A stretch of 64,000 nucleotides of DNA, taken from the NCBI GenBank assembly GCA_000091205.1, contig AP006502.2, one strand, 5' to 3'. This document shows positions 19,421 through 61,486 of this stretch, in pieces; position 1 is the first letter of the stretch, and each line of letters begins with the position of its first letter. Under the pieces are notes generated by a model, which was given only the letters and a program-made list of their open reading frames with translations, was not told where the DNA came from and made no database searches. The DNA comes from Cyanidioschyzon merolae. Its lineage: Eukaryota. The translations under genes were made by a program, and so were the position numbers.

Positions 19421-19499
19421 CGATTTCGTATCATCGTCCATACACGTAACTCGAATGTACTACAAAGTTTAGGTCTTTCCCGTTTTAGCCAGGGCAAGC

Positions 19500-42300: not shown

Positions 42301-43329
42301 TATATCCGGATTTCGCAATAGCGCTTCCGTGATATTTTGACTCACGCCAGTGGTAAATTTGCTCAGCATTAATCCCGTAAAATTCAACGGGAAGACTACC
42401 CGACGCGATGATTCTCCCCGGAAGGCAGGGAGTGGCGCGATAGTTGCCTGAGCGCTCCGCACGCCGCTGGCGATCGGGAACGGTAGCGGTGTCGGCACCG
42501 AGTCGCTCCCAGCGCTTTTAGCCGTCACCAGCACATTCGCGTATCGAATACCGGGGCAACGGGCATTGTAGAGGGCCCAGGTACCGCTGGAGAACGTGTT
42601 GTCACTCGTCTCAACAGAGAGCTCTCCGTTAATGAACACTTGAAGGCGGGCGTGATCGCAGCGCACGTGCAGCTCGACAAAGTCTCCGAGCGGGTACGGC
42701 TGCGCGTGCGCCGCTGTCGCAATCGTGTTCCAGCTCCCGTTCGCGACAACCTGCAGCTGCTGAATAGCGCCGCTGGCACGAACTCCCGGCTCTTCCGTGT
42801 TACTCCACACGAAGCGGTAATAGTTATTCGAGTCCTGAATGCGAAACATGACTCCGGCCAGTCCGTTAACTGCGGCATTGATCGCAACATAGATATCGTA
42901 GTTGGTGAGGGTCTCAGAGCCGGCCCCGATGTACTGGAGAAACGTGCCTGCATAGGGGTCGGCGGCGCTATTTGGCGAGAAAATGTTCTTGGTCTGCTCG
43001 AGCACCGCACCGCTCTCGTAACGCATCCCGTTCGCATCCACGTCGGTTTCAATCCAGAAGGAGGGCGCCCCAATCGAGCCCTGGTCCACTGGCTTCCACA
43101 CGCTCGTGTCTATTGGACATATTGGCGCTGTGCAGGAAGAGAAGTCCGTTCCGAAAATGACACCAGACTCGCTCACTCGAAACTTGCTCCAGTCGGGTGA
43201 AGCGCCCCTGACTGATTCGGAAACGCCCAAAAGCGCCAGCACCAGAACAAGCGCGCAGAGCCAGCGGTACCGCCGGGGCCACGGACGCCAGCGCGCACCC
43301 GAGAGCAGCGCGGCAACCGATGCGAACAT
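39340..43329 (-). CDS. Single ORF encoding a signal peptide, a ConA/LamG-like ectodomain, a TM helix and a complete Sec1/Munc18 (SM) domain. Apparent fusion protein.
   Basis: The track ORF starts on TTG at 43371. The first ATG is at 43329 (MFASVAALLSG...). The hydrophobic signal-like segment LCALVLVLALLGVSESVRG and the TM helix AVAAIVAVLIVLALVFGVLLVWCLL followed by RRRRQRR lie at about 41955-42035. Downstream come SM motifs: WLLVLDARTAVLL...LPTIYILAPT; LLMDRAVDPVTPLLHVNTYRGMLLEL; C-terminal FLFVVLGGVTALEVEQIRGLA...IDVVIGGTSVLSPHQYL. No in-frame stop lies between the modules. Confidence 0.5.
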   Translation of the reverse strand: MFASVAALLSGARWRPWPRRYRWLCALVLVLALLGVSESVRGASPDWSKFRVSESGVIFGTDFSSCTAPICPIDTSVWKPVDQGSIGAPSFWIETDVDANGMRYESGAVLEQTKNIFSPNSAADPYAGTFLQYIGAGSETLTNYDIYVAINAAVNGLAGVMFRIQDSNNYYRFVWSNTEEPGVRASGAIQQLQVVANGSWNTIATAAHAQPYPLGDFVELHVRCDHARLQVFINGELSVETSDNTFSSGTWALYNARCPGIRYANVLVTAKSAGSDSVPTPLPFPIASGVRSAQATIAPLPAFRGESSRRVVFPLNFTGLMLSKFTTGVSQNITEALLRNPDIREALLSDPPLVLVDLRAGSVIATYAGVISASALDAWQTALNRFVCRGHLSNLTALGPVSCGADNVLAVDVQDPNEANAVTAGPAQGISTGAVAAIVAVLIVLALVFGVLLVWCLLRRRRQRRAGFEKKAHFGAAYGFQAADAAEKGTLSPTSLGSEAANEPRWGIPGGILSMDSLSPLMLSLPSFGSIDDSQKPFSIVQRVQRLLVALVHDQVEHFGQRDWLLVLDARTAVLLKYALGPNLAECFPSARICLLEQLPRCGNRELELPTIYILAPTGDWMTSVARYEAKRSAPVPVRLLLTRSPSAPLPRRHAISWADVDGSTVLLPIHVDFFPIEEQVVSIENREDVFGLLYGADAPETCAMRFQLMEELGHQIGTLLHGMGAGTFANEAPWIQIHTSPAASEQATCIARAAQTYAAVHLLPLFCPGLVAGRGALHLLLMDRAVDPVTPLLHVNTYRGMLLELNDAAGNARPQWPSEHDAVWRALRQYTLSDAVAKLQALAQPLLASSEPDSDNRVTHAECIDLDLASLKRALESLQAADPAQLELLSALRWHAKSLERCLQEQQQRNLLYLSALERCIVMGIKQDQGSRISSATMRRTVEKVLEADTYALSDKLRLLLVFLGCRDPHLVRELVQKIPGLDLQTQDSLIRTANAFLQRLRAAKWATRSARVRRRRRARVLVHESLGSLLLPETMASQILLQYMGAFDLQQRHEVAEGHDDSAVASDHEHKEPLGSPAAELFLSTLLVEPRAPSPAPEPHVTAPLAATTTMTTTTTPATQGHDMTHDAAVGMQLDAMPSQNTRKGIHSEDAHMMHSPGTTCNQSDEQRTAADTQTTPRVVQQVDRATPDVDVKRSARRSRLRIAEEAGMLAEALSPSSPPSSAQRNVRSQATVCEALDGTEALQQQQQDATETLPEDAGVHAALVDRLQRAAERYRNDRFLFVVLGGVTALEVEQIRGLATHLQIDVVIGGTSVLSPHQYLASIESL

Positions 43330-45099
43330 CCACCACGTCCTGTGACGACTCAGTATAAAACCTGTGCCCAACCCTGCGCGTAAAACTCAATGAAAACAAA
43401 GCGCGTGATACCTGGAAGCGCAAGGCGGATCGCAGAACAGAAATCTCTGTTCATTGTAGGAGAAATAGGCATTCGATCGATCCGAGTATGGACGCGTGGC
43501 CTGGGGAGCAAACAGCGCCGGCTGGTGGCGCCTCGAGGGCCGGTGGCGGCACGTGCCGCTTCCGCGCACAGGGCGGCGCTTTTGTTGTGGCCCGGACCTA
43601 GCGGGGAAGCCGACGGAGATGGTTCATATTTGTCTATTAATGAATAAGAATATGAAGCGGCAGCAGGGCAATCGAGGTCTCCGCGCTCTTGCGCGTACCC
43701 CGCTGGACAGGAAAATGCGTACGCGCGCGCGGCTCGCATCCGATGATCGACACCTGTGATCGATACACATGCGATACTGAACTGCTCGTGCTATCCCTGC
43801 GTTGTGACTTGTCGCAAATTGCAGCGTTAAACGGACAACCTAGAGATCAAAAGTGCATGCATAGGAGATTACGGGTGCATATATAGGTATACGATTTTTG
43901 ATCGATTTTGTTCGGAGTGGGTTCTTCGAAGCTTTTGCGCCTGGGATTCGTTACGTTCCCAGAAACAAGATGACTGGGGGCGGCGCCCACAAATAATGAT
44001 TGGGAAAATAACCAATGTCGCGATGCAGCGTATGCGTCCAAGTCTCCGCTATTCTTCTATCGTTACATGTATCATGTTCAAATCACGTATTCTTCGTGGT
44101 TTCGATCGCACTGTTCTGAAGCGAGTCGTGCACGCAGTAATGCACGTCGCCGGATTGGCCACGAAACCAGAGCTCAACGTCGACTCTCGAAGGCGTTTTT
44201 CACATCGAATCATTTGTCTCGTTCGAAACACAAATCCGCCTCTGTTTCGAGGCATCGACCAATCGGCATTCGCCTGGAGCATAATACCTGTCACGGGATA
44301 TGCTCGCAAGGGCCCCTGTCTCTTCTCTTTGCATTCAAAAAAGGGTACTGGACACGAGCTCCAGTTATCGCAACGATCACTTCCCGTGGACCATAAGCGG
44401 ATGGAAAACTCTCGATCTCTCCTCTAACCTGGATTCCGCTTCCGAAACGTGTTCCATCATGACCAAGATCGCGTTTCATAAATCCCGTCTCGAATGGAAC
44501 ACTGCGCGCTTGCGCTCGCGGAGGATACCCTATTTACTGCGTGAATCGCACAGAAAAAACATGTGATCATGCGATACGACGATGTGTGCGAAAATGCAGG
44601 ACGGTACCGAAAGAAGCCTTCCGTAGTGTCCAGGTACATGCGGCAATCGATGAAGCAAGCGTTCAAGCTGCACTAGCCGCCGATAAAAGAGAGGGCACTT
44701 GTTGCGATGGACATCTGGGACGCCTGACCGCTGCCAAGTGTCACTGCTGCGAGGGACGAACCGAGGTCGCGTTCGAAGAACGTGCGTAGATCACAACTTT
44801 TGCCGGTGCATGAATCGCGTGAACAACACCCAGAAGCAGCGAAATCGGCGACTTGGACGCTACGATCAATACCCCTTGACCGGCATTAACAGAGCTGAAC
44901 AGACAGGAGAGATCGACGTAATCTGAGCCTGAGACCATACGGAGGTAAGGCAGGCAGTCGGAGACGAATCCCTCAAAGACTTTTGTTCATGACTGTGGGA
45001 AGCATCCCAAACTTGAGAATGTACGCTCGAGTTAGACCAGTGGACCTGCACCTTTCGATTCTGATATCGCGAGATGCTCGGTCGAGCAAAGAAGCAGAC

Positions 45100-45660
45100 G
45101 TCGACCGGGGGCTGGCGGGTACATCTATTCAGCCAATCCCAGACGCCTTCCAGCCTTTATTAGGCCGGCCGACTGCTAACGGTTTCAGTTTATCCGGGCA
45201 CACTTCGAACCTCAGAGGCAAACCCCACGAAGCTGGATTACGTCAGGCCGTCGTGTCTCGTCTTCAGCACCACACAGCGTCTGATATTGATAGCAGCGTT
45301 GAAGCCCCGGGTCACGAACTCCATGCGTTTGTTGCCTCTGGTCGAACTCACAAGTGCAAGAATTGCTAGAACTCGTGCCCCATCAGAGCCACTACAGTCT
45401 CGACATTGTCCTGTCGGGCAAGCACCGTGTCCCGCACATCTCCGCTCTTCCTCGTCTTTTGCTTCTACATCACTTGCTCTTCTTCGCTCGATCGTCGGCG
45501 AGAAGAGGATTTTTCTGTTTCCTTTCCAGTACCCGGCGATCTCGGGCCCGCCAGGACCCCTGACTTGCACGTCCATATCCGCCCCTTGGGTTTCTTACTT
45601 GTCCAAACGAGCACATGTCGAAAACGTCCAGCATAAACCGCAAAAAAAAGCACTTGACGC
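45100..45660 (-). mobile_element. Fanzor/TnpB-like remnant, copy c4.
   Basis: ORF 45238-45576 (-): ...RRCAGHGACPTGQCRDCSGSDGARVLAILALVSSTRGNKRMEFVTRGFNAAINIRRCVVLK. A cysteine cluster is retained upstream of RuvC-III. Upstream DNA is about 80% identical to c3 (atcgagcgaagaagagc.agtgat). The tail aligns to c1. Confidence 0.5.
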
Positions 45661-45787
45661 AACGCACCTGGAGATGGAACGCAATTCAGATGAAAGTCCA
45701 GAACGCACGCTGCGGCACCGGATCGCCGCAAGATCGCAGGCGCGCAGCGTGCACAGACGGCGCCTTTGCCGCTGAGGGTAGCGTCCG

Positions 45788-46010
45788 TCACGAGAAGCGG
45801 CCTGTGCGCGTCTGTCACGAGAAGCGGCCTGTGCGCGTCTGTCACGAGAAGCGGCCTGTGCGCGTCTGTCACGAGAAGCGGCCTGTGCGCGTCTGTCACG
45901 AGAAGCGGCCTGTGCGCGTCTGTCACGAGAAGCGGCCTGTGCGCGTCTGTCACGAGAAGCGGCCTGTGCGCGTCTGTCACGAGAAGCGGCCTGTGCGCGT
46001 CTGTCACAGC
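45788..46010. repeat. 27-bp minisatellite, about 8.5 perfect units (GTCACGAGAAGCGGCCTGTGCGCGTCT).
   Basis: Seen directly. It translates as (HEKRPVRVC)n or (VTRSGLCAS)n in overlapping ORFs and lies immediately beside remnant c4. Confidence 0.9.
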
Positions 46011-46471
46011 TGGGAACGGCTGCACAGCAGTGCTTCGCGCTCACTTGGCTGTTCCAGGAAAGCACATCTGGGGCTATGTCGACGTCAAGGTTGTGTACAA
46101 GTTTCCGAGCGATTAACGGCCGGGGCTTAGGGACTCTCGTTCCACGGCGAGGGCTGCACCAGACAACAGCGAGAAACCGAGCGACGCACGGCGAACACGA
46201 CGAACACCACGATGTGTACGGGTACCTGCACGCTCCGCACATGTACGACTTGAGTCACGCAAGCAAGTGGAAGTACGGCATTGCGACGTTTACATTTGTT
46301 ACAACAGGGCTGGGATTGCCTTTCTTCATGGTATGGTACTCGCAGAAAAAAGCCGGCATATGGTAAGACGGTTTCGATCAAGGTATTGTTGCTGGGGCTG
46401 TTGGCTGCTTCTTGAGGTTGGCGTCTCGTGTCCAACTTGTAAACACTACTTGTTTCTGAGTAACCCACGTT

Positions 46472-48196: not shown

Positions 48197-49603
48197 GTTG
48201 CTCCTGCAGCGCACGCAGAGCATATTGGGATACTCGTGAAAGCCGGGGACACCTACGCCTCGAGTTGTCTGCAGAGCACTGATGGAACCGTCTGGGCTGG
48301 GAATTGGGCAAGTGCCCATCCAGATGCAATTTGAGGTGCACGAATGCATAGCTAGAAGGATGGCGTCCAAGCGGGTAGCTGCGCTCTCGTGCACCTCGTG
48401 TCTTTGCTTGAGGCGTAACACAAGCGCAGCGCCATCCTGGTATTCCGCGTCTGGGCTACATAGACAATGGTACTGGTGCGGCTCCGGTGTCATCGTTCGT
48501 GTGAAGCCTTTATGAGCAAGACAACGTAGACGCTGCAAGTTGCGTACGATGACTCGATGACAAATAGGCTCTACGCAGAGCACAGCACTCATCACGCTTG
48601 AGATGGTAGCGCTTCGGTGGCACTCCCGTGTGGTTGGCTAGAATACCAACAGCCTCTCAACAAAGATAGTCTGGGACAAGACGATGTCGGCAGCAGGACC
48701 TGTCAGAGGCGATCAGTACTCCCTATATCGTTTCTGGAACAAAGCTGTCGTGAGAGACGCATGATTTCACTGCATTGCACCACTGCTGAGTAATCGAGAT
48801 TTGTATGCATCCGTGCTTCCGGGATTGAACGTAACGCATTTCAAGTCGGTTGGTTGCGTAAGCAAGCAGGCGCTGCTGGCTACGGTGTGCTCGAAAGCGC
48901 GCGCACGTCCACGAGTGAACGTCATGGAAGCGTGCGAATGCGCTCCTCGATCATCTCTTCAACGCTTGCATGTCGCTCGTCTGCGCTTGTGCGGTGCTTT
49001 CCGTTCCGTCTTTCGATACCTTTCAAACTTGGCACCTGGGACTTGTTCAGTTTATGCCCATGACAGCCAAAGTGGATGCAGAGCAACATCGCTTGCGCTT
49101 CATGCTCGCCGGACGCAAACGCATTCGTTCCCACAGAAAACGTCACGCGCAAAACCCCGCTTGTTGGGCGGGCATGCGCAGCAAATCCGGGACCGCTGAC
49201 AAAGGTGTTGCCATTCCTGCTCATCATGGCGTTGTGCTGAGGTCTCGGCTCGTTTGGAGCCGTGTAGCTCATGTGGCTCCATAGCGCGCAAGTATGCACC
49301 GCAGCTTCGCCAGTTGAAATTCGGCAGCCACGTGTGTATTCTGCGAGAAACTCAGTAATATCGAATAATGCAACACCATTCTCGATTGGCAGTCGCCCAG
49401 GGATACCATTCCGACTACATAAATACGATGTTGCAGACTTGTTGTATTCCTGACCATACCATACTACTGAATTGCTCCAGGCGAGAATCAGATGCCGCCT
49501 CTCTAATGTCCTTGAATTCGTTTATCAAAGGTCGTCAGCGATTCAGGGCAATGCCCACGGCCTGTACGCAACGATCCGCTCCGGGGTCCGTTCGATGCAG
49601 AGC

Positions 49604-50745
49604 TCATGCGCGTTTCGCTAGCAGAGGCCATCTCCGAACGTTGTTCGACAGACGCTCATATCTCGATCCATAAAGGGCCGTCACACGCTTCGACAGGTAA
49701 ACGCACACAACTGCATGCCGCTCGCTCTCGTTGCTCGCTGCATCGGACGTTATCTCAGCGTACCGTGCAACATCTCGAGCGTCCGGCTCTGTTTCACGCT
49801 CTTCTCCTCTACCGGCATCAGCGCGCAACCGTGCTCTTGATTTCTGCATATTGTCCTGCATCCATCGATAAGCATCGGAAAGAATCGATTCCTTCGCTCG
49901 TTGCACGCTCTCGTAGACGCAGCAGGAATGCAGCCCGAGCGCGTTCCAGCACCTCGAGCGGCAGTGCGCTGCCACCGAACAGCACGACGCATCATGCACT
50001 ATCGGGTTCATGTTCATGTTCATGTTCAAGTCCATGTCCTTGATCAAGTCCTTGAGCGTGTCCACGTCCATGTCCATTTCATGGAAACCGTTGGCCAGTC
50101 TGCGCTTCTTGCCTCCGTGCAGCCGGAGCATCGGCGAGTCCGGTGCGGCTCCATCTAGTGCCTCCATAGATTGTCTGCATGAGCCATTTGGACGCTCATG
50201 TGCTCCGTGAATGCGGCGTTCAGAGAATACCTCAGACCGCTGGATTCAGCGCTCAGAGCGTCAACATGGGTCACGACGCTGTCCTTGCACTCGCTGGTAG
50301 ACCGCTGGGCGCCCGCCATGTCGGGCTCCCGTTCATGCCCTTCCCTGCACAAGCTGCGCAGTTGCATTTGCTCGCCCTGAGGATCTCCGGATACATCCCC
50401 TCGATGTAGAGATACTGCATCTGAGATGACGGTTTCCAGCTGCGGATCCGGGTCCGCCGCAATGTCCGTCTCATCGTCTACCCTGACAGGTTCAAAAAGC
50501 TGCTCGTCGGCTGACGCTGGCCTCGGTTTCATGGAGTCTGTATTTGTGTGTGTGTGCGTGTGCGTATGTGTGCAGACGGACAGTCCGTCGGTGCATCGTC
50601 CCTGTGCATTTCGTCTTGTTTCCTTCGTGTGACAGAGAAACCTTGAACGAGCCTCTGCTCTGCTCTGCTCTGCTCTGCTTGAGGCTGCTCGAGCGATACG
50701 TCGCTGCTCGAAGAGATACCAGACCCTCTTCGCTATCCGCTTCAC
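49604..50745 (-). CDS. Hypothetical protein encoded in the duplicated segment (two overlapping ORFs, 49604-50167 and 50155-50745, offset by one frame).
   Basis: D/E-rich, HT-repeat and MN-repeat low-complexity ORFs. The frame offset falls at a microsatellite. This could be an unspliced short intron or a frameshift. Confidence 0.25.
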
Positions 50746-51979
50746 TTGGATGCCCGGTCATGGTCTGGTTGCTATGCTCTACGTCTGTTTTCCTCCTTGA
50801 GAAGCACACGGACTGGATGGGCACTGTTACTAAGACTCGCCTTCTCTGTGTATGTATCGACGCTCTCTCGGACACGTTTTCGTTACCTTCTTGAACGCGA
50901 GCGTGTCCACGCACTGAAACGTGCCCCTGCGCTCCCTCCTGTGCAAGAGACGCGGCCCAACACGGTAGTTCAGGGCTGGTGGAGGTATCGCAAGCGTCGT
51001 CGAAAAACTCGAGTGTTACGGACGTGACTGACGCACCGCTAGATCCGTGAGCGTCAGAGCGGCTTTTGACAACAGAAAAGACGCTTTCGACTGGAATGGA
51101 CCAAGGGAGAGTAGACTGGCAGGAAGCGCAGCTCTACGCAGTCTCAGCTGCATACTCGGTGACTGCTTCTTGTTGTGACGGGAACCGACGTTTTCTAGCA
51201 GCAGGACAGAAGAGCTTGGGAACGAGGTTCCATGAGCACTTCTCAGAAGATTGAGGTTTTTGAAGGATCCGGGCTGTTCAGCGATCTCGGGGCGACCAGA
51301 CGTGTTACCCGCCGCTAGCTAGGACTGTTGTTGCCGTCGCGCTCGCTTGTCTTGGCTGAACGAACTGCGAATCGCCCCTCTTTAACTACCCGTGCGCAAG
51401 TCTACGCGTTCTCACGAACAAAGTCGCATCGAGTGAGACATGCAGCAGTCTGTCCCACGGTAAGCGATCCCTGCACAATACAAATGCAAAGCTGAGCTGA
51501 GCTGAGCTGAGCTGAGCTGAGCTGAGCTAAGCTGAGCTGAGCTGTCCGACACAGGATACGTTCCGGTGGCATCGCGCTTTCTCCCGTGTCCATTGGTGGC
51601 CCTTCACCGCTCTTCGTATCATGGGTACGGAAGTTTCAGAAACTGTGGCTTCGACAGTAAAGCTTCATAGCGAACGCTTGGAGACGAATGGAACGACGAG
51701 ACGACGGTCGTGGAGATCGAGGTCCATAGGTTGCACGTCGGGTGCACCATGTCCAGACCGAGGACTAGGCAGCGAATGGCCCGTGCATCTGCCCACCGAA
51801 GAATGCCTGAATACTACACCTAAGATCCTCTGTCGCATGCTACCAGAGACATCACAAAGTCGTCCCGCAACGCTCTTCCAACATGCTGGATACAGTCCAT
51901 TAGTTGAGTGCCTGCGAGAAAAACAGAGGACGACGATGAAAACGGCGTGCTGGTACAGGAGCTCCAGAATGCACTGCTC

Positions 51980-52108
51980 TGTTTATAGGCTCTCGATAGA
52001 TGCCAAGTACTGGTGTGGGGCGAGCACGCTTGTACCGCCAATTACCACGTCAATCTGCAGATGTGTAGCGAGTCCTCGTATCAGCTCCACTTCAAGAGCG
52101 GTGACTCC
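51980..52108 (-). pseudogene. Duplicated 3' fragment (last about 43 codons) of the SM-fusion gene.
   Basis: ORF 51983-52231 (-) ends ...GGVTALEVELIRGLATHLQIDVVIGGTSVLAPHQYLASIESL. This is identical to the SM C-terminus except for two substitutions, and it diverges upstream. Confidence 0.6.
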
Positions 52109-52499
52109 ACCCCAGTAGCCCGGCCTTGCCCGTTCCACATGATCGACGATTCTCAGTCGATATATCCCTCCGATAAAGAGCGTGCCCTTGGCGACGCAAG
52201 AGTGCACTCGCCCGCACGCCGCACCAATCACAGAAATCGCTGCACGAAAAGCGCCGAGTACAAACTATATCGAATGCCAAGGAGTTCTTGTGCCGTAGTG
52301 GGCTCTCTTCGTTTGCGTGTTAGAGTTCTTGCAGCTTACCAAACACAGAAAGTAAGGAGGCGGACTGCCAGATTCACTCCAGGGTGCTTTTAGTGGCCGC
52401 TACTGCCGCTAAGCGCAGGTCGGGAGCGCAGCGCGCGGGCGAGGAACTCGTTTTGGAACGGGCGCGCCTAGTTGGTCGTCGCTTCAGCAAGTGCGCTGC

Positions 52500-55400
52500 A
52501 TGAACACGTCGCCAAGGTTACGAGGTCAGCGTCGATCGGACTATGCTGCGTATGCAGGTCGTCGACGACAGCCTGCATCGTCGTTGTCGTGCGCGGTTGG
52601 CGCTGAACTGAAAGCCGCTGCTCATGCAGAGCCTGTCTCTCCAGGTAACGAGATACCGCGCACCACTGGCGAGGGTGAACGTACCGGTACGGCCGTGCAA
52701 GGTCCGACAACTTCTCGGATTGATGCACTTCTAACGAAGCAGGCGCTTTCGGACGAGTTACTGATGTCAAAGCTTAGCGACCGTCTGCGGGAACTGGCAC
52801 GGAGAGCTGCAGCCTCTCGTGACGAGCACCTTCGTCAGGCGCAGCTCTTGCAAACGCGAGCTGAACGTGAACAGAAACGAAAGCTAGTGCGCAGCCACGG
52901 TGATGTGAGGCCCCTGAAACGAGACGCAGCTGGTTCGAGCGTGCTGCACACAACAGCACCACGGGGAACCGGCGAGCAGGCAAGCCCGCCTCGCTCCACG
53001 TTCCGGGACGCTGGCTCCATGGACTGGAAGTCGAGCGCGGAGGAGCCAGCCCGACTGACTCTAGACGAGCAGGTTTTGCAACATTTAACAAAAGGTCATG
53101 AATCGGGAGGAACCTCCACGTCTGCGGCTTTAGAGAAGCGCTGTCAGGCGTCCATCGAGGCCCTCGATACCACTGTTCTGGGTTTTTCTGATGCTGATGC
53201 TGCGTCGCAGCGCCTAGCGGAGGACCGCATACTGCGTGAAGCCACCGAAATCCAACAGCGCAACCTGGAGCTTGCGAAAGCGCGCCTGCCGAAGCAACCG
53301 GAACCGCCGCGCTCGAAGACACACCACGACTATCTCTGTGAGGCGATGATCTGGCTAGCCACTGATTATCGAGAGCGCTTCAAGTGGCACGCTGCTTTTC
53401 GAGCACGACTCGCTCGCGCTATCCACAGATTTCATGAAGAACGGAAGCAGCGGGACGCACGTGACTCCCAGGCACGAGAGGTCGCGCGTATACGACGAGC
53501 TCGCCTGTTGAGTCGGCACGTTCAAAAGTTCTGGGAGTCACTCTTCCATATGATGATATGGGAACAGCAGGCACAGGACGAGCGCCTTGCAAAGCGCAAA
53601 CGACAACGGGCTTTGGATTCCCTTGTTCACCAGACTGAAGACTACGTCAAGGTCCTGGCAGAAGAACTAGCGACTTGTGACTCGGAACAGATGGTTGTGG
53701 ATGGAGAGCCATATTCTACCGCGGAACTTGCGACAGGAAGGGAATCGGATCGGGCATCGCAAACGCAGCTCCCGGAGATAACCGCAGATACCGCAGCGAA
53801 TGGAACGATACGCGAGTCGGATACGCAGTCTCTGATGCCGCGCGCTACCAACGAAGTGCACTTGTCGACGAGCCGAGCACGAAGGCCACTTCCTGGTTGC
53901 TTGATGAGCAGCGCGGACGCATCAGTTGATGATGTTGGTACTGGCGGTTACGGAACGCAGCGACAAATTGGATCGATGCCAGGGACTGCGGATTCGGTCT
54001 ACTCCAGTGCGCAGCGACTGGGAGACGCCTCGCCCGAAGATCGTGGTGATGGTGATGGCGGTACAGCACTGCTACCAACGAAACCGGAAGTAGCTGCGAA
54101 CATGTCCGAAAGGTTGCCAAATACATCGCTGGGAGCAGCCGCTGCACCCGATGTTGAAGAGCATTCGGGAAACGCAACCCAGACCAGCTGTGCTGCACTG
54201 TCCACGAAAGAGGCACTTGAGCGGCCGGCATCGTTCCGCTCCGTGGACGACGCTTTGCGTATTCTCTTTCGAGGCCGCTTGCGCCCCTATCAACACGCCG
54301 GCCTACAATGGCTCATTGCCTTGAACGAGAAGGGTCTCAATGGTATGCTGGCAGACGACATGGGCCTGGGCAAGACCATCCAGACAATAGCGCTGTTGGC
54401 TTGGCTGGCAACTGCAAAACAGGACTGGGGTCCGCATCTGATCGTGGTACCCACCTCTGTGGTCATGAATTGGAACATTGAATTCAAAAAGTTCGCCCCA
54501 GGCCTCAAGGTGCTTTGTTATTTCGGGACGCCCACCGAACGAGCTGCCAAGCGCCGCGGCTGGACCAAACCCAATGCTTTCCACGTTTGTGTCACGTCTT
54601 ACCACATGGTGGTGCAGGACGCCACCGTCTTTCGTCGACAGCAATGGAGCTATCTCGTGCTCGATGAAGCGCAACACATCAAGAACTTTCAGAGCCAAAA
54701 ATGGCAGACATTGCTCACCTTCCATTCGCGGCATCGTTTACTGCTGACCGGAACGCCGCTGCAGAACTCGCTGATAGAATTGTGGTCGCTGTTACATTTC
54801 CTCATGCCAAATGTTTTCCAAAGCCATAGCGAATTCCGGGAGTGGTTTCAGGAACCTATCGAGACGCTCATTCAAGCCGATGCAAGCGTCCAGGAGAGCA
54901 TGGTTGAACGTCTGCACCGCGTTATTCGTCCCTTTGTGCTTCGACGCCTGAAGCGCGACGTGGAGCGTGAGCTGCCCCCGAAAACCGAGGAAATTGTCTG
55001 GTGTTCACTAAGCAAACGGCAACGAGAGCTCTACGATGACTTTATGAGTCGAGCAGCTACGCGGGAGAAGCTACTCAGCGGAAATTACCTGTCTGTGATG
55101 AATGTGCTCATCCAGCTGCGCAAGGTTTGTAACCATCCGGACTTGTTTGCAGGGCGACCCATCGACGAGCCCTACGCAAGTCAACGACCGCTGACGATCT
55201 TCATTCCGCACATCATACGAGCAGAAGCAGCGTCTGAGACGGCGCAGCGCCGGGCACCCCGCCTCGTCGATGAATCCATGTCTCGCGAGGACGCTGCTCG
55301 GATACGAGCCCTTACCGCCGCCGCGCGAATGCTCGCAGAGACTTCAGCGTGTCCGACGACATGCTCCGATTCGCAGGCCATATCGCGGGCATCGTTTGCG

Positions 55401-58046
55401 AGTCTCCTAGCTCGGATCGACAGAGCCGAGCAAACGGAACGCAACCAGTTGCGTCTGGTATCATGTAGTCGACGCATCGCGGAGCCAGTTATAGGGGCGA
55501 GTATTCGGCAACTCGTGCGGGTGCCTTTGCGCTCAGCACCTGCGCTGCATCCAGTGGCCACGCTGGAGCGCCTTGTTGACCGAGCGTTAGCGCAGGCGTT
55601 GCCGTTTACGCTGGTGGTGCATCGCGCGATCGCACCGGTGCCGCAGCTCGTAAGCAAGGCAGCTTTTCGTTACCAGAGACGAACAGCTTGTGGGACCACA
55701 TCACCGCCTCTAGCGTATTTGTTCGGTTTGTGGCGACCGTTGGCGATTCGTCAGCAACTGCGCTTCCCGGATGCGCGGCTGCTGCAGTGGGACTGCGGGA
55801 AACTCCAGCGCCTTGCTGTCCTGTTGAGAGAACTGGAACAAAAAGGGCATCGAGTGCTCATATTTACTCAAATGGTACGAATGCTCGATATTCTTGAACA
55901 ATTTCTCTGCCTGCATCGCTTTGCCTACATTCGCATGGACGGGAGCACGCCCACGGGTTTGCGTCTACGCCTCTGTGAGCGTTTCAACAACGATCGGCGC
56001 TATCTGGTGTTTCTCTCCACTACGCGTAGCGGAGGTGTCGGCTTGAACCTCACCGGTGCCGATACGGTGCTCTTCTACGACTCGGACTGGAACCCCACGG
56101 TTGATGCGCAGGCCCAAGACCGCTGTCATCGCATCGGACAGGATCGGCCGGTGCGAATCTACCGGCTCGTGACGGAAGGCACCGTGGAGGCTCCGATACT
56201 TCGTCGAGCGCTGCAGAAGCAACGCCTGGAACAACTGGTACTCGCGGATGGTCTCTTCACGACCGAGGTATTGCAGCGGGTCCATCCACTGGAACTGATC
56301 GAGGGAGGTCCGGCGCCGCCTCCTGTGCACCCGAATCCATACGGAGGACTGGAGGCGTGCGGCCTCACCGAGCAGGAGTACATACAGCTAGAGCGCACGA
56401 TACTCGAGGCTGAGGACGACGAGGAGCGACGGATGCGCCAGGCCATGGAGTTGGCAGCGTCTGCTGACGCCAGTCTGGATGCAGTGGACTTTGCCGAAAC
56501 GCCCGCCATGGCCGCTACTCGTACGGACAAGCCCGCTGGGGACACTTCGACCTGGTGGCCTGTTTGGCACACTGCGTGGCGAATCGCGCAGCATCTCGGA
56601 GGACCTGTGGCAGCAGCAGCAGCAGTAGCATGGGATACAAGGCAGGCACCGGAACGTGTTGCCAACACGAACGACTCCAACCTCGACGAAGGTGCTGCAA
56701 ACACATCTTTGAATGATGAAGCCGATCAGAACAGTGCAGCGCTACCTTTGGTGTATCCACCTGTTCCGGATCCGAACAGTTCGGGAACAAAAAACGGATC
56801 CGGGGGTCTCGACTGGCGGCGTACGACTCGCGCGTACCATAGCGAGAAGCGTAGCGGCGACACGGCGGCGGCGCTGGTGATGGTGTACGGGCCGCCCGTC
56901 GAGACCCCCGTTGATTTGATCCTCGACCCCGAGGCTGGCACCGAAGACGCGGCGTTTTTTATTCACTGCTATTGGCGAATGGCGCATTCTGGAGCCCCAA
57001 CTGCGCTCCAGCGCGGACGAGTAAGTGACGTGCAGCAAATCGCTTCGCATCTGCGCAACGACGACGCATTTGTCGATTCATTGACTGCTGGCTTGGGGGC
57101 AGCAGCAGCAACAACAACAACAACAACAACTACGACTACTACACGAGTACCTGTTGCAGAAGCGCGTAACGCTGTCGATCGCATTCGGGCCCCCGAGGCG
57201 ACTGCGACTGCCAAATCCGGAGCTCGTGCCGACTCGAGTACCATGCGGACATTGCCGCTAGGCCCAACACGCCAGGTCTATGTGAACCTACAGGCCTGGT
57301 TACGTCATCGAGTGCAGTGGTCGTTCCAGGAAGATGCCGCGCTGCTCCAGGCGTGGCAGCGCTACGGCTCCAATCCTCGACTGTTGGGGGATATCCTCCA
57401 TGCGCAAGCAAGCGTCCGTCTTGGTCTATTGCACCGTCGTACGGTCAGAGAGATTGAGGAGCGGCTGCAGCTCTTGCTTGCGAAGAAGATTACAGAACCG
57501 AGTGCCTTAGCGCAGTGGCATGAGGCCGTCTCGCAGACGCGAGCGACCTCGATGCGAAAACACCATCGTCGCTCGATTCAGCTGGCCCAGCGTCGCGTGC
57601 TGGGCATGCGAGCTCGCTTGGACACCAAGCGAGTGCTCCGAACGTCACGCGGGGACGCTGGAAACAACGCTTTTCTGGACCCGGACAGGGCACGCGAGGC
57701 ATCCCCGCGAACGGTGACAGCAGACCGCGCAGCAGCGAAACGCGACGCTCTTCCAAAGCGTACGCAAACAAACGAGGGAGCCCGAACCCCCGCTGATGCT
57801 GTTCCTGGAGCGGTGGCACCAGCTCCTGCCCAAGTCATGGATCCGCGAGTGTTGGTTCCACCGCCGGGCACCAGCGGCTGCGGCACTGCAGAGGCAACGG
57901 CCGCTGGGAGCCTTGTCCATCGCCCGGGGGTGAAACTCGAAGAGGAACTTCGTCGGAGGCGTCCTTTTCGTCGCTACATTGCCAGACTGGGTCCGCTGCT
58001 TGGTTTCGAGTTGCGAACCTCGAATCGGGGCCTCGACAACGACTAA
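52500..58046 (+). CDS. SWR1: SWR1/SRCAP-type SNF2 chromatin-remodelling ATPase (HSA domain plus split ATPase with a long insertion).
   Basis: The track ORF starts on GTG at 52491. The ATG is at 52500. HSA-like THHDYLCEAMIWLATDYRERFKWHAAFRARLARAIHRFHEE. Motif I LADDMGLGKTIQTI, DEAQ box LVLDEAQHIKN, and LLLTGTPLQNSL. About 250 aa are inserted before the helicase-C lobe (LIFTQMVRMLDILE...DSDWNPTVDAQAQDRCHRIGQ). (GCA)n/(ACA)n encodes an A/T-rich tract. Confidence 0.8.
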   Translation: MNTSPRLRGQRRSDYAAYAGRRRQPASSLSCAVGAELKAAAHAEPVSPGNEIPRTTGEGERTGTAVQGPTTSRIDALLTKQALSDELLMSKLSDRLRELARRAAASRDEHLRQAQLLQTRAEREQKRKLVRSHGDVRPLKRDAAGSSVLHTTAPRGTGEQASPPRSTFRDAGSMDWKSSAEEPARLTLDEQVLQHLTKGHESGGTSTSAALEKRCQASIEALDTTVLGFSDADAASQRLAEDRILREATEIQQRNLELAKARLPKQPEPPRSKTHHDYLCEAMIWLATDYRERFKWHAAFRARLARAIHRFHEERKQRDARDSQAREVARIRRARLLSRHVQKFWESLFHMMIWEQQAQDERLAKRKRQRALDSLVHQTEDYVKVLAEELATCDSEQMVVDGEPYSTAELATGRESDRASQTQLPEITADTAANGTIRESDTQSLMPRATNEVHLSTSRARRPLPGCLMSSADASVDDVGTGGYGTQRQIGSMPGTADSVYSSAQRLGDASPEDRGDGDGGTALLPTKPEVAANMSERLPNTSLGAAAAPDVEEHSGNATQTSCAALSTKEALERPASFRSVDDALRILFRGRLRPYQHAGLQWLIALNEKGLNGMLADDMGLGKTIQTIALLAWLATAKQDWGPHLIVVPTSVVMNWNIEFKKFAPGLKVLCYFGTPTERAAKRRGWTKPNAFHVCVTSYHMVVQDATVFRRQQWSYLVLDEAQHIKNFQSQKWQTLLTFHSRHRLLLTGTPLQNSLIELWSLLHFLMPNVFQSHSEFREWFQEPIETLIQADASVQESMVERLHRVIRPFVLRRLKRDVERELPPKTEEIVWCSLSKRQRELYDDFMSRAATREKLLSGNYLSVMNVLIQLRKVCNHPDLFAGRPIDEPYASQRPLTIFIPHIIRAEAASETAQRRAPRLVDESMSREDAARIRALTAAARMLAETSACPTTCSDSQAISRASFASLLARIDRAEQTERNQLRLVSCSRRIAEPVIGASIRQLVRVPLRSAPALHPVATLERLVDRALAQALPFTLVVHRAIAPVPQLVSKAAFRYQRRTACGTTSPPLAYLFGLWRPLAIRQQLRFPDARLLQWDCGKLQRLAVLLRELEQKGHRVLIFTQMVRMLDILEQFLCLHRFAYIRMDGSTPTGLRLRLCERFNNDRRYLVFLSTTRSGGVGLNLTGADTVLFYDSDWNPTVDAQAQDRCHRIGQDRPVRIYRLVTEGTVEAPILRRALQKQRLEQLVLADGLFTTEVLQRVHPLELIEGGPAPPPVHPNPYGGLEACGLTEQEYIQLERTILEAEDDEERRMRQAMELAASADASLDAVDFAETPAMAATRTDKPAGDTSTWWPVWHTAWRIAQHLGGPVAAAAAVAWDTRQAPERVANTNDSNLDEGAANTSLNDEADQNSAALPLVYPPVPDPNSSGTKNGSGGLDWRRTTRAYHSEKRSGDTAAALVMVYGPPVETPVDLILDPEAGTEDAAFFIHCYWRMAHSGAPTALQRGRVSDVQQIASHLRNDDAFVDSLTAGLGAAAATTTTTTTTTTTRVPVAEARNAVDRIRAPEATATAKSGARADSSTMRTLPLGPTRQVYVNLQAWLRHRVQWSFQEDAALLQAWQRYGSNPRLLGDILHAQASVRLGLLHRRTVREIEERLQLLLAKKITEPSALAQWHEAVSQTRATSMRKHHRRSIQLAQRRVLGMRARLDTKRVLRTSRGDAGNNAFLDPDRAREASPRTVTADRAAAKRDALPKRTQTNEGARTPADAVPGAVAPAPAQVMDPRVLVPPPGTSGCGTAEATAAGSLVHRPGVKLEEELRRRRPFRRYIARLGPLLGFELRTSNRGLDND
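57100..57140. repeat. (GCA)4(ACA)7 microsatellite encoding AAAATTTTTTTTTTT inside SWR1.
   Basis: Seen directly. Confidence 0.85.
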
Positions 58047-58799
58047 GGTTCTAAATCGCGATGTGTGCAGGTTCTAAGGTGCGTTTCGTTCACGAACGAG
58101 CTCCAGGGAAGCGCAGCTCGGGCATGTAATGGTATTGATGTTAGGTGCGGTGGCGTGGGGTTGCATAGCGACCCGCGCTGCTGACGTCATTGCCGGCTGC
58201 TGGACGGGATGTTGTGGCGCATGCCCCTGAAGCCTTCGCAATGCCTTTCGGTCGTGAAGACGCTGGTCTAGTTTCTCGGGTTCATCTGGGGAGGACAGAG
58301 CGCCTGAATCCCTGGAAACCGGACGTTGAGCATGTGCTCATCGTGGGTGTTGCGGCTATCGGCTGCATGGAGACAGGAAGTGCGGTCGCGGTCGTGTAAT
58401 GTATCGCTGCGAGAACACGTTAGAACACGTGCTGTTTTACCGCGAACAAGCTGCAGTCTCCGTGTTCCGCCGATTATGGATGTTGGTATGGAACCTTGGT
58501 ATCTAGAGTGCGCCCCCGAGTCCCTGTAAGCGGAGGTTTCCGCGGAGGATCGCTAGACCCACGTCAGAATAGAATGGAACAAGTACATGAACACTGGCGT
58601 TCTTGCCAATGTTCTGCATACTCTTCCCACGTTTATCAACAGAAGCATTTGTGGCATTTATCTGCGACTGCTTCCTCGTACTTTCTTTGATCGCCGGCAG
58701 CAAATACGCCGTGTTCTGCTTTCTCTCACGCTTCATTGTCAGCAATTGGAGGGTGTTCATAGCGGCACTGAAGTCCCGGTAACGCTTTTGCGGGCTGAT

Positions 58800-59700
58800 T
58801 TCGACAACATCCATGTAGGCGAGGTTGTAGCGATCTCCGTATCGCTTGCCATTTTCATCTTCCTGCTAGATAACATCGACGCGCAATGCGTAGCGGTGAC
58901 ACGGGCATGTAAGGCCGGTATTCCCGAGTATCCACCACATATTCACCTCCGAAGGCCGGGCAATGACGCTTCAAGACTTGCCTCATTGTTCGGTGCGTGC
59001 GCCGAACGAGTGCAGAAGGCTTCCGCCGATGCCCTCTCGAGTTCGCATGGCGAGTGCAGTACCGCAGGATCACGGGCTTGTCATGGTCGATGCCCTGGAC
59101 AAATTCACCGTCTGCTGCGAGCGCTCCCGTACTCTGTTCCATTCGATCAAGAATCAGTGGAACGCGATGCTGTCCATGGTAGACCAGGTACAGGGAGAAA
59201 ACTCCAGACTAACGAACAAGCCGCGATCATTCGTTCTCTTAACACTCCTCTCCTGCAAATCGATGGTACTCCTCCCAGTGCGTTACGATCGCTGCGATGA
59301 CTCAGGTCCGAGCACGAGACTCTTTTCCATGGAAACCGAAGCAAGGGGAGCCTCTCGGAACACATCCCGTCACAGGTATCATGCTGCTGTGCAAAAGTCG
59401 TTTCATCGATCACCGTAAAACGATTCGGACTTGTGATTCGATTGCATTCGATGATTTGACGTGAAAAGTTGCGTGCACTTTCAGCGTGCGCACGTATGAA
59501 CTTGTCGTCAAAACACGAAATCGAGTTTTCGTTTCCGCGTCAGTCCAGCTGCGCGAATTGCCTCGCCAACGAGCTCAAACATAAAAATAGTCGAAATCTT
59601 GAAGAATGCATGATTGGAGGAGGCTGCATTTTGGGAAACGTAACGAGAGGACCCTTGTTCGTATGATCAGAATTATGATGTCGTCTATTTTACGAACGCT
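58800..59700 (+). mobile_element. Degenerate Fanzor/TnpB-like element, copy C. The longest coding remnant: possible RuvC-I-like, RuvC-II/helper-like, decayed ZnF/RuvC-III.
   Basis: 58587-59300 (+) contains GEVVAISVSLAIFIF (compare the Fanzor/TnpB RuvC-I block vvsIDPGvrtF). 58963-59418 (+): AVPQDHGLVMVDALDKFTV...TLFHSIKNQWNAMLSMVDQV (compare the TnpB RuvC-II ...vvIEdLnvk... and NRSIsDAgWg.f...L.YKA). Then RCDDSG...RHRYHAAVQKS (compare CxxC...FNAAINI). Reverse-strand parallel ORFs 374-583 and 58855-59142 both begin MEQS.... Confidence 0.45.
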
Positions 59701-59753: not shown

Positions 59754-61148
59754 CTATAACCGACGAGCATCCTCGAAAATTGCCTTGAACATATAGGCTC
59801 GGCTCAGAAGCGTGCTGAGATCCTGTTCTGTCCACGATCGGGTCGGCAGATTCTGAAGAAAGAGTACGAGATCGGGGAATGTCAGGCGCACAAGATCCAA
59901 CGAAAAACGCTCCAAAAGTGCAGCGCATACATACACGTGGAACGCGGCAAATGTGCCGCGTTCACTCAGATACGCATCCCAGAGTCGAAGGGTAATCGGA
60001 AGCGGAAACTCGCGAACCAAGAGACAATTCATCCAACGGAATGCAAACTGCATAAAGGTTACCTGCTCTTTGGCTAAGTGCGCACACAGTGAAGCATCAA
60101 TGCGTTGCATGATGCGTTCGAGTAGCGCCACTCGACGCTGAATACCAGGTTGCCCGAATACATACTGATCTTGCAGTGCTTCGAGAAGTGTGCTCAAGCA
60201 CCAGTAGGTATCCGCTTCAACCTCGCGCAGCAGCGGCTCCGCATCTTCCGGAAGCGTGGTGCGATCGAGTTGGCTAAACTCTGGAGCCTGGTCCGCGTAA
60301 AAGACGTACAACAGTGGTACCAGGATGTCATTGAGGCCTTGTACATAACCGGCGGCGGGATGTCGCACGGACCACAAGTGTAGGATCCGCGTCATTGCCT
60401 GTTGTACGGCTCCGGTGTGGAAGAGCGGAAATTCGGGTGCGGTACGCGGCACGTCGAGGTCGATCTGACGCTTACGAGCCCAGTCTTCTGAGGACAGGCG
60501 ATTACCGAGTCTGGGATCAGTGACTAGCCCGAGTTCAGCAACTGCTTGCCAGTACTGGTCGCGTTTGCGGCTGACGCTCCGGAGAAGACGCGAAGGTTGC
60601 GGCGGGCAGTAGTCCAGCAGCACCTTCCACGCAAGGGCCCGTTGCGCACCAGGCACGCCGCTCCAGGCAAGTTGTTCGAGGAGCCCGCGATCGACAGCGC
60701 TGATCCTGCTCAGTTCTGCAGCATCTCCTCGTCTCCAGGCCTGGCGAATCGCGTCCAGTTGTGTCCAGAGTGTGGTGGAGGCCTTCGAACCCACGCCCTC
60801 AGCGTCTTCGGTTTCCAGCGCGACTGCTGGCGCTGTTGCTGGCTTTGTCACAAGTGCTGCGCTGCCCCTTTTCAAACCAGCGTCTGTGGAAGCTTCTCGT
60901 TTGTTTTCGGCGAGCAACGGACCCTGGCACAAGGCCTGAACCGCCGTGCCGACTCGCGAACAGTGCGTTGTCGGCGCAGCGTCCGCTGAGGTTGCAGTCG
61001 TGTTATGAGGTGCGCTATCAGCGGTGATACCGCCTTGTTGCGCTTCCCATTCGCTGAACTGTGGTACGAGCTCACCTAAGCAGTCACCTGGTGCCCCAGA
61101 GAGCGAGCGAATAGACCACCAAACCGTGTTCAGCGCTCTCGAGTCCAT
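59754..61148 (-). CDS. TBC-domain Rab GTPase-activating protein (Gyp1/TBC1D22-like).
   Basis: The track start is GTG at 61199. The first ATG is at 61146-61148. Arg-finger block RKRQIDLDVPRTAPEF and Gln-finger block YVQGLNDILVPLLYVF are present, along with the TBC helices LDLVRLTFPDLVLFLQNLP. Confidence 0.7.
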   Translation of the reverse strand: MDSRALNTVWWSIRSLSGAPGDCLGELVPQFSEWEAQQGGITADSAPHNTTATSADAAPTTHCSRVGTAVQALCQGPLLAENKREASTDAGLKRGSAALVTKPATAPAVALETEDAEGVGSKASTTLWTQLDAIRQAWRRGDAAELSRISAVDRGLLEQLAWSGVPGAQRALAWKVLLDYCPPQPSRLLRSVSRKRDQYWQAVAELGLVTDPRLGNRLSSEDWARKRQIDLDVPRTAPEFPLFHTGAVQQAMTRILHLWSVRHPAAGYVQGLNDILVPLLYVFYADQAPEFSQLDRTTLPEDAEPLLREVEADTYWCLSTLLEALQDQYVFGQPGIQRRVALLERIMQRIDASLCAHLAKEQVTFMQFAFRWMNCLLVREFPLPITLRLWDAYLSERGTFAAFHVYVCAALLERFSLDLVRLTFPDLVLFLQNLPTRSWTEQDLSTLLSRAYMFKAIFEDARRL

Positions 61149-61486
61149 GCAGTTCGCGGCTGCTCCAGCGTATGTGTCCAAGTTGTCGCTCAGTACCACG
61201 CAGATAACTATGGTATTCGTAACTGTGGCAGCTGCGTCATCGGACGCCTGTCACGCTCTCGTTCAGGTCAGTGGGCAAACAACACCCATATCGAGACCGC
61301 AGCTCTATGCCACGTCCTGGACTAGGGAGAACGCTTCCAGGCTTTGCCTCGGAGCGACGATCGCTGCTGGCGTATGTGTCATTGGCATTGACTTTCTCTA
61401 GGCTTCTGTCGTTGCCGTTGTCGTCGAACAGAGACGATCGTGACCCGCTTATAAGGTGCTCCTGCAACTTTGCGGAAGCTTTCGGC

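Follow-up and report, generated by a model that had tools for sequence, protein, structure and literature searches.

What kind of element left the remnant, here called copy C, that lies between an SWR1-type ATPase gene and a RabGAP-TBC gene of Cyanidioschyzon merolae, and on which strand was it encoded? The DNA analyzed, called the window throughout, is a 64,000-nucleotide stretch of contig AP006502.2 from strain 10D, whose hydrolase ORF at 1536-2696 is identical to BAM83290.1/XP_005539326.1. An earlier note on this DNA placed copy C between the two genes, which is confirmed, and described it as a TnpB/Fanzor-derived, inactivated remnant with three RuvC motifs on the plus strand. The general idea of an inactivated TnpB/Fanzor-derived remnant at this position stands, but the strand, the motifs and the presence of RuvC-I do not. 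The two flanking genes are convergent, and copy C occupies the intergenic gap, with one limit ~50 bp short of the RabGAP-TBC stop codon.

52491-58046, plus strand, SWR1-type ATPase gene, according to its domain content (HSA, SNF2 and Helicase_C)
59754-61199, minus strand, RabGAP-TBC gene, flanking copy C

Copy C belongs to a repeat family. When copy C was used as the nhmmer query, four further copies were found in the window (E 1e-57 to 1e-74), and the window copies share 55-60% pairwise DNA identity. A metagenome scan with the consensus of these five copies gave 29 loci, and together with locus L004 from a protein search they yielded 12 distinct copies, bringing the family to 17 distinct copies. 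An HMM built from the 12 non-window copies only and searched against the window recovers all five window copies with the same ends (E 1e-186 to 1e-226).

2-1354, minus strand, copy A, full length (HMM positions 6-1379, E 3.8e-212)
19447-20780, minus strand, copy E (HMM positions 7-1343, E 1.2e-212)
24520-25891, minus strand, copy B, full length (HMM positions 8-1377, E 4.4e-226)
43762-45067, plus strand, copy D, in the opposite orientation (HMM positions 12-1375, E 1.5e-198)
58557-59700, minus strand, copy C, 5'-truncated (HMM positions 239-1379, E 5.9e-186)

These five copies make up about 10% of the window. Copy C had been taken for the longest of them; it is the shortest, covering positions 239-1379 of 1380, and is the only window copy with a 5' truncation, in which 238 bp are missing on the side of the TBC gene. 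In the 17-copy alignment, conservation rises from a background of ~0.5 to 0.63-0.76 in one block and returns to background on both sides. The flanks of the copies are unrelated, and identity falls to background right outside the element ends. The intergenic regions of the window hold clustered transposable elements, and fragments of CMe-1A, a published Fanzor1 family described below, adjoin copies E and D. A 2.8-kb segmental duplication is also present in the window. An Rfam search of the window gave 0 matches.

The conserved block has a consensus of 1380 bp and ends in 25-bp terminal inverted repeats (TIRs), CACCCGTGTCAGATGAAAATGGAAC and CACCCATGTCAGAATAAAATGGAAC, which match each other at 22/25 positions. 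The 3' TIR of copy C is the sole site in the window with three or fewer mismatches to the consensus TIR pattern CACCCRTGTCAGAWDAAAATGGAAC, with 0 such sites expected by chance. In individual decayed copies, TIR detection mostly failed. The two columns flanking each of the decayed ends contain T in 7/14 and A in 6/14 copies on the 5' side, and T in 10/15 and A in 8/15 copies on the 3' side. We note that this TA enrichment is statistical only and lies at fuzzy ends, and that a target site duplication (TSD) is not provable copy by copy.

In copy C, the coding strand of the element corresponds to the minus strand of the window. On this strand, the majority consensus of the five window copies contains one frame with only 2 stops in 416 codons, and this frame ends with ...TTAQCHRCEG...CPCMKC...RNRDLNAAINILRL. 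The remaining five frames of the same consensus have 5-17 stops each. In the 17-copy consensus, the coding content is divided between two frames. Frame 1, after a 79-bp leader, reads MYSLDIRSAAIRAY...PPLFVAIDETAF...GTCFIMDNIAFHK and contains one in-frame stop before a junction; frame 2 has no stop between the junction and its own stop codon and reads (Y)RMEQRALACAADSVLAEGIAQKKPVIIGYGTGRGNGGGHRGEPSVPVKGMHRAMKQAF...AVDIREHLTTAKCHRCEG...FCLCMKCVDNSRKQRNRDLNAAINILRL...GKRPKL. As described below, frame 1 holds the first ~243 codons of a transposase and frame 2 the last ~165 codons of a Fanzor1 gene, with the two parts fused out of frame. One common junction is found in 17/17 copies, which have 135-145 nt across the 141-nt junction window (139-143 nt in 15/17). 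The breakpoint position is uncertain by about 10-15 nt.

The consensus matches Pfam DDE_3 above the cut-off (E 6e-10, 39.6 bits, cut-off 28.6), with weaker matches to HTH_Tnp_Tc3_2, HTH_33 and HTH_32, and the intact transposases P0041 and L034 (P0042) align to it in tblastn from Met1 (E ~1e-26). Because of the DDE_3 match, the HTH matches and the alignment to these two proteins, the first half can be assigned at the sequence level to a Tc1/mariner (DDE_3) transposase with HTH domains, of which it is a fragment. The first two catalytic residues are kept in the consensus, and the third is absent from the whole family. When Pfam was searched with the eight largest ORFs of copy C (both strands; at least 55 aa), nothing relevant was found; a single copy is too decayed for such a search, and matches came from the consensus alone.

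The second half comes from the C-terminal part of a Fanzor1 protein. The consensus matches Pfam PF07282 (Cas12f1-like_TNB) with E 2.1e-6 and 28.2 bits (cut-off 26.3). We also used a Fanzor1 HMM made from seven sequences, with the query excluded (six from the Bao & Jurka supplement and one from L034), whose 286 positions begin ~20 residues ahead of the RuvC-I DPG motif and run to the C-terminus. This HMM matches the consensus coding frame with E 5.8e-23, at positions 132-281 of 286 only. No frame of the consensus or of any of the five window copies gives a match to positions 1-131, which include the DPG motif at ~25-27.

An alignment of the consensus with six bona fide Fanzor1 tails has invariant columns for the G of GYG, P, the E of vDE, RD, A and RP, and the consensus carries the invariant residue in all of them. 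The TnpB/Fanzor motif has been given as D-X(125,275)-[TS][TS]-X-X-[C4 zinc finger]-X(5,50)-RD (Bao & Jurka, PMC3627910). The consensus contains the [TS][TS]-X-X and C4 parts in its zinc ribbon, TTAKCHRC...CLCMKC, and the RD motif of RuvC-III (RD.NAA.NI) as RNRDLNAAINIL, and it lacks the N-terminal catalytic aspartate (RuvC-I, IDPG/GLDPG). Fanzor proteins have a rearranged RuvC-II, with Gly or Pro at the canonical position and, ~45 residues further on, an alternative Glu (Jiang et al. 2023, PMC10530073), and the corresponding G and E were described as "extremely conserved" in Fanzor1 (PMC3627910). In the consensus, the distance from the G of VIIGYG to the E of DIRE is 45 residues, and both columns are invariant in the alignment with the six tails.

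A profile built from this alignment matches GtFz1 (9cer, 2.4e-9), SpuFz1 (8gkh, 2.6e-9) and ISDra2 TnpB (1.2e-5) in the PDB, in each case at the very C-terminus of the solved Fanzor1/TnpB chain. The profile was required, as phmmer of the consensus alone against PDB sequences gave no match. The family is homologous at the profile level to GtFz1, SpuFz1, PpFz1 (9cf0) and ISDra2 TnpB (8bf8/8exa) in the segment from RuvC-II through the zinc ribbon to RuvC-III (E 2.4e-9 to 1.2e-5). Compared with these solved proteins, it has ~165 residues only, without WED, REC and RuvC-I.

The closest relative with RuvC-I is P0048, a 273-aa fragment of the same Fanzor1 lineage, which is 76% identical to the consensus tail in a protein search and keeps GLDPGRVN at residues 66-73. 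In tblastn, P0048 aligns to the consensus and to copy C from residue 169-172 on only, with residues 172-226 aligned to 59145-58981 (minus strand) of copy C, and residues 1-168 have no counterpart in the consensus, copy C or the rest of the window. The breakpoint of the presumed deletion would therefore be ~100 residues downstream of RuvC-I. No copy of the 1380-bp family has RuvC-I, and this includes the other long copies with which the earlier note proposed to compare copy C. A functional Fanzor combines a complete RuvC triad, an intact ORF and an associated guide RNA (fRNA/omega RNA); this family has only part of the triad, in an ORF that is truncated and broken. The tblastn alignments of the transposases can be drawn out, though weakly, as far as an 'AYSP' motif, which shares sequence with the beginning of the Fanzor-derived part. 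We rejected a transposase frame running through 'AYSP', with a junction ~25 codons later, because the Fanzor1 HMM and P0048 align confidently from 'YRMEQRAL'.

With the two halves defined on the consensus, copy C can be read along its minus strand as follows.

59157-59700, minus strand, Tc1/mariner (DDE_3) transposase remnant by sequence, codons ~52-243
59365-59388, minus strand, SSMIPVTG, just past the position of the first catalytic D (lost in copy C)
59157-59177, minus strand, MDSIAFH, with the second catalytic D
59146-59156, minus strand, out-of-frame junction of transposase and Fanzor1 left by the presumed deletion, as in all 17 copies
58620-59145, minus strand, Fanzor1 C-terminal remnant from RMEQSTGAL to DKRGKS (tblastn of the consensus tail, E 1.3e-27)
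59119-59145, minus strand, RMEQSTGAL, start of the Fanzor-derived part
59059-59088, minus strand, DHDKPVILRY, beta-strand at the RuvC-II position (consensus KKPVIIGYG, with Gly for Glu)
58921-58938, minus strand, VVDTRE, with the alternative catalytic Glu (consensus AVDIRE, 45 residues past the G of GYG; E invariant in the alignment with the six tails)
58803-58907, minus strand, degenerate zinc ribbon (the PF07282 match of the family, obtained on the consensus)
58890-58907, minus strand, CPCHRY, remnant of the first CxxC knuckle
58821-58865, minus strand, zinc-ribbon insert QEDENGKRYGDRYNL
58803-58820, minus strand, AYMDVV, the lost second zinc knuckle (consensus CLCMKC)
58749-58784, minus strand, RuvC-III remnant RYRDFSAAMNTL (consensus RNRDLNAAINIL)
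58556-58580, plus strand, 3' TIR GACCCACGTCAGAATAGAATGGAAC, with TA before it at 58554-58555

The Fanzor1 remnant of copy C is broken by one frameshift (~58910-58918) and by one in-frame stop, and it has lost its terminal stop codon. Folded as RNA, the 244 nt at the 3' end of copy C give an unremarkable z-score of -1.78.

The plus-strand peptides that had been read as RuvC motifs are present at the following positions, together with the motif used for comparison.

58818-58862, plus strand, GEVVAISVSLAIFIF, read as RuvC-I, within ORF 58587-59300
59071-59100, plus strand, HGLVMVDALD, read as RuvC-II, in the frame of ORF 58963-59418
59374-59400, plus strand, RYHAAVQKS, read as RuvC-III
7188-7208, 17592-17612 and 45283-45303, minus strand, FNAAINI, in CMe-1A fragments

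The plus-strand ORF 58587-59300 is real and encodes 237 aa. The reported spacing of ~80 codons between GEVVAISVSLAIFIF and HGLVMVDALD is also correct (84 codons), but the two peptides lie in different plus-strand frames and not in a single one. The assignments themselves fail. GEVVAISVSLAIFIF is the antisense of the zinc-ribbon insert QEDENGKRYGDRYNL, HGLVMVDALD is the antisense of GIDHDKPVIL, which contains the strand at the canonical RuvC-II position, and RYHAAVQKS lies on the strand opposite the transposase segment SSMIPVTG, after the position of the first DDE aspartate. The true RuvC-III remnant of copy C is RYRDFSAAMNTL, and FNAAINI sits in CMe-1A fragments, a family other than that of copy C. 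Thus, all three motifs were assigned on the non-coding strand. A frameshift-aware HMM alignment, which the earlier note had named as its own test, places no RuvC-I at ~58.83 kb, and the best match of the Fanzor1 HMM to the plus frames of copy C has E 6.8 and lies away from the RuvC-I positions. Copy C was further proposed as the best template for reconstructing the ancestral protein. It is 5'-truncated by 238 bp and no less diverged than the other copies, and a multi-copy consensus serves this purpose better.

The copies differ from the consensus by 25-30%. Divergence at codon positions 1, 2 and 3 is 0.287, 0.280 and 0.286 in the transposase part and 0.285, 0.252 and 0.275 in the Fanzor part. 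As divergence is the same at all three codon positions, the copies are relics that decay neutrally. For copy C the value is 33%, a figure raised by non-homologous sequence at the truncated end, and copy C is otherwise like the other copies.

Intact elements with both genes exist. P0041 is an intact transposase that starts with MYSLD..., like the consensus, and a 636-aa PF07282 protein is encoded 93 bp downstream on the same strand of a 3273-bp contig. L034 carries a transposase (81-1001) and a 657-aa Fanzor1 (1033-3006) between 34-nt TIRs (59-92 and 3101-3134), and its Fanzor1 contains SIDPGRVN...VAYGAA...LVDEFRST...NRDLNGALNIRR. The layout of these relatives is TIR-transposase-Fanzor1-TIR (~3.1 kb). 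Their transposases share only ~30% identity with that of the family, and they carry a CMe-1-type Fanzor1 that lacks the C4 zinc ribbon. The search of the 64-kb window and the metagenome matches turned up no full-length parent with the TIRs of the family. Since the relatives are distant and the same-TIR parent was not among these sequences, the architecture of the parent is drawn by analogy.

Published elements have the same organization. Fanzor1 genes are carried by the Mariner/Tc1 elements PUl-1, PUl-2 and PGv-1 (Bao & Jurka 2013, Mob DNA 4:12, PMC3627910), of which PUl-1 is a mariner-Fanzor1 element of 3620 bp with a TA TSD (Bao & Jurka 2013, PMC3627910), and an association of Fanzor1c with Mariner/Tc1 was reported by Jiang et al. 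2023 (PMC10530073). Like PUl-1, PUl-2 and PGv-1, the 1380-bp family has a DDE_3-type transposase followed by Fanzor1 on the same strand and TIRs in the range of ~24-34 bp; a TA target duplication like theirs would be consistent with the data of the family. The GxG at the RuvC-II position, vDE.[TS][TS]xxC, the zinc ribbon and RD.NAA.NI are shared with mariner-Fanzor1 elements. Unlike the PUl-1 type, the family consists of an internally deleted derivative only, all copies are dead, and RuvC-I, the N-terminal ~75% of Fanzor1 and the third catalytic residue of the transposase are missing.

The same host genome contains another family that encodes Fanzor1. CMe-1A has ~150 copies in C. merolae, a 3169-bp consensus and a 734-aa Fanzor1, has no TIRs and is unclassified (PMC3627910). 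With the CMe-1 sequence from the supplement of that paper, tblastn on the window matches other loci and not copy C.

7029-7307, 17442-17794, 19157-19375 and 45223-45378, CMe-1A fragments in the window, the source of FNAAINI

The FNAAINI-bearing fragments are 40-64% identical to the C-terminus of CMe-1. Against the 1380-bp consensus, tblastn of CMe-1 aligns only 63 residues around RD.NAAINI (E 0.008), and at the DNA level CMe-1A and the 1380-bp family have no similarity except 29 nt at the RD.NAAINI codons. The two families share the host and the protein family, but the C4 zinc ribbon is kept in the 1380-bp tail and missing from CMe-1, and the TIRs and transposase half of the 1380-bp family are both absent from CMe-1A. 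The 5' and 3' ends of CMe-1A were checked for a hidden transposase and for similarity to the 1380-bp family, and showed neither. A systematic position of CMe-1A 3' ends beside the family's 3' TIR was also considered; it is seen at window copies E and D only and in 0/12 metagenome copies, and was dismissed as coincidence.

Internally deleted, non-autonomous DNA transposons are classic derivatives of Tc1/mariner, P and Ac/Ds elements. Like them, the 1380-bp family retains both termini and partial coding sequence, has a single common breakpoint, and was amplified without coding capacity; unlike them, its deletion spans two genes and leaves a transposase/Fanzor chimera. We believe that copy C is, very probably, the dead relic of a non-autonomous deletion derivative of a Tc1/mariner (IS630-Tc1-mariner) element carrying Fanzor1. 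By analogy with the intact relatives, the parent would have been ~3.1-3.6 kb long, with a TIR, a DDE transposase (~307 aa), a Fanzor1 (~640-660 aa) and a second TIR. A single internal deletion of ~1.8 kb would have taken out ~60 codons at the end of the transposase gene, the spacer between the genes, and, with RuvC-I, the initial ~490-530 codons of Fanzor1. Adding ~1.8 kb to the 1380 bp gives ~3.2 kb, in line with the sizes of the relatives.

The resulting chimera starts with the 25-bp TIR, the 79-bp leader and transposase codons 1 to ~243, which cover the HTH domains as well as the first two catalytic aspartates. The out-of-frame junction, the last ~165 Fanzor1 codons, a trailer of ~55 bp and the second 25-bp TIR follow. 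The Fanzor1 tail of the chimera keeps the Gly at the RuvC-II position, the alternative Glu, the C4 zinc ribbon and the RD of RuvC-III. Both catalytic triads are incomplete, and such a chimera could be moved only by a transposase supplied in trans. We infer that the family originated by deletion and was mobilized in this way, the latter on the grounds that the TIRs match, the flanks are enriched in TA, and the scattered copies all share the same boundaries. Afterwards, the copies decayed neutrally to ~25-30% from the consensus, and copy C also lost its 5' 238 bp.

Three other explanations were weighed against this deletion derivative. In the plus-strand pseudogene of the earlier note, RuvC-I, RuvC-II and RuvC-III would lie at 58.83, 59.08 and 59.38 kb. 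The peptides are indeed on that strand, and the 237-aa plus-strand ORF covers part of the region; the peptides are even loosely conserved elsewhere, yet only through the conserved DNA. Neither the plus frames of copy C nor the matching strand of the consensus gives a Pfam or Fanzor1-HMM signal, and it is the opposite strand that has above-threshold DDE_3 and TNB matches and the Fanzor1 HMM match (E 6e-23). The order of the motifs on the true strand runs the opposite way along the window, and the supposed RuvC-I is antisense to the zinc-ribbon insert. This pseudogene has virtually no chance of being the correct reading. It is very unlikely, too, that mariner and Fanzor fragments came together by chance and were spread by segmental duplication instead of transposition as a unit. 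Clustering of transposable elements, such as CMe-1A beside copies E and D, and the 2.8-kb segmental duplication would make such an event conceivable, but 17 distinct copies with unrelated flanks have the identical two end positions, these ends are inverted repeats of each other (22/25), and flank identity is at background immediately beyond them.

The unit might also encode, or once have encoded, a functional transposase-Fanzor fusion or a domesticated gene, given that both halves are on the same strand, that the consensus has long open stretches, and that gene callers annotated copies as "hypothetical proteins" (P0001, P0026-P0049). However, the halves are in different frames of the consensus with a stop in the transposase frame, neither catalytic triad is complete even in the consensus, divergence is equal among codon positions, and every window copy examined contains stops and frameshifts. 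We regard such a fusion gene as extremely improbable. A variant of the deletion derivative concerns the role of its tail. The deletion derivative keeps its right-hand part, from the 3' end of Fanzor1 through the trailer to the TIR, and in Fanzor systems this part encodes the guide RNA (fRNA), which overlaps the TIR (PMC10530073). The family could be a putative "guide-RNA-only" satellite that relied on its parent for both the transposase and the RNA-guided Fanzor1, supplied in trans and serving, for example, homing or the retention of copies, so that the Fanzor tail would have been selected and not accidental. We consider this idea very improbable.

Fanzor1 in C. merolae and mariner-Fanzor1 elements were already described in 2013 (PMC3627910), and no description of the 1380-bp family was found in the papers searched. 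The finding is an ordinary one, and its significance outside correct annotation is small. It also carries a caution about short, catalytic-looking motifs found by eye, as GC-rich DNA derived from coding sequence gives long antisense ORFs. The consensus tail, with its zinc ribbon, alternative Glu and RD, could aid the rebuilding of an extinct red-algal Fanzor1, whose N-terminal three quarters would need another source, such as L035/P0048-like relatives. For the organism, the 1380-bp repeat, read as a mariner-Fanzor1 deletion derivative, is distinct from the published CMe-1A. The host therefore once had two or more Fanzor1 lineages, and a Tc1/mariner element carried at least one of these.

The 237-aa, stop-free ORF 58587-59300 (+), which the earlier note had read as a nuclease remnant with a possible RuvC-I block, lies antisense to the relic in copy C of the 1380-bp element, and homologues of this ORF were not found. 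Long antisense ORFs of this kind are typical of GC-rich, coding-derived DNA, and this one misled the earlier reading. RuvC-I-region homology is found in the window only in two relics, one in each copy of a 2.8-kb direct duplication with 97% identity (36720-39468 and 49350-52111). CMe-1, used for comparison, is the 734-aa protein of the published Fanzor1 family CMe-1A.

Fanzor1-like relics in the 2.8-kb duplicates, both badly decayed
37084-37866, minus strand: in the first duplicate, similar to CMe-1 residues 423-652
49714-50472, minus strand: in the second duplicate, similar to CMe-1 residues 423-652

The CMe-1-matching part of both relics contains the RuvC-I region (AADPDP), and a simple repeat translated as 'T*T*T*' breaks up both. 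The first duplicate overlaps the 5' end of a Sec1-family ORF (39340-43371). Tandem repeats are also present in the window: a perfect 60-bp duplication at 11525-11644, and a repeat with a 54-bp period and 98-99% identity at 45781-46007, within ORF 45595-46242 (-), for which Pfam gave no hit.

A less decayed fragment of the element's own Fanzor1 lineage is located at 5001-6120 of the metagenome locus L035 (JGI 3300031217, Ga0307940_1001143), with 88% identity over KKPVIIGYGTG...VPVK. The fragment contains one frameshift and keeps RuvC-I (GLDPGRVN), zinc knuckles with a long insert between them (CHRCE...CEHC), and NRDFNAAINIL. It is flanked by a Peptidase_M16 gene and another gene, and no transposase was found upstream.

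Five CMe-1A fragments and a decayed transposase were also found in the window.

CMe-1A Fanzor1 fragments and transposase
7029-7307, minus strand: fragment, similar to CMe-1
7463-7532, minus strand: fragment, similar to CMe-1A
17442-17794, minus strand: fragment, similar to CMe-1
17871-18743, minus strand: mariner-type transposase, decayed, nearly full-length, aligned to residues 6-293 of the L034 transposase
19157-19375, plus strand: fragment, similar to CMe-1
45223-45378, minus strand: fragment, similar to CMe-1

The fragments share 40-64% identity with CMe-1 residues ~612-734, and three contain RDFNAAINI-type motifs. In the 7029-7532 piece, CMe-1A nt 840-910 is fused to the last ~96 codons, so this is an internal-deletion copy too. 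The fragments at 19157-19375 and 45223-45378 are CMe-1A 3' ends lying tail-to-tail with copies E and D, 72 and 156 bp, respectively, from the 3' end of the element's nhmmer match. No such neighbour was found at 12 metagenome copies of the element (nearest, 1216 bp); the adjacency is therefore probably due to transposon clustering in permissive intergenic DNA.

The transposase alignment includes LLDNVAF and PPYVPWFNRIEG, and the CMe-1-like Fanzor1 C-terminus (17442-17794) lies ~77 bp downstream. L034 combines a CMe-1-like Fanzor1 with an intact transposase, with TIRs on both sides. This architecture and the 17442-18743 arrangement hint that CMe-1-type Fanzor1, too, was mariner-borne; CMe-1A was unclassified in Bao & Jurka (PMC3627910).

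In JGI, ENA and Logan metagenome assemblies, decayed copies of the 1380-bp element carry many gene-caller 'hypothetical proteins' of 110-360 aa (P0001, P0026-P0040 and P0043-P0049). Pseudogene translations of these copies swell protein databases.
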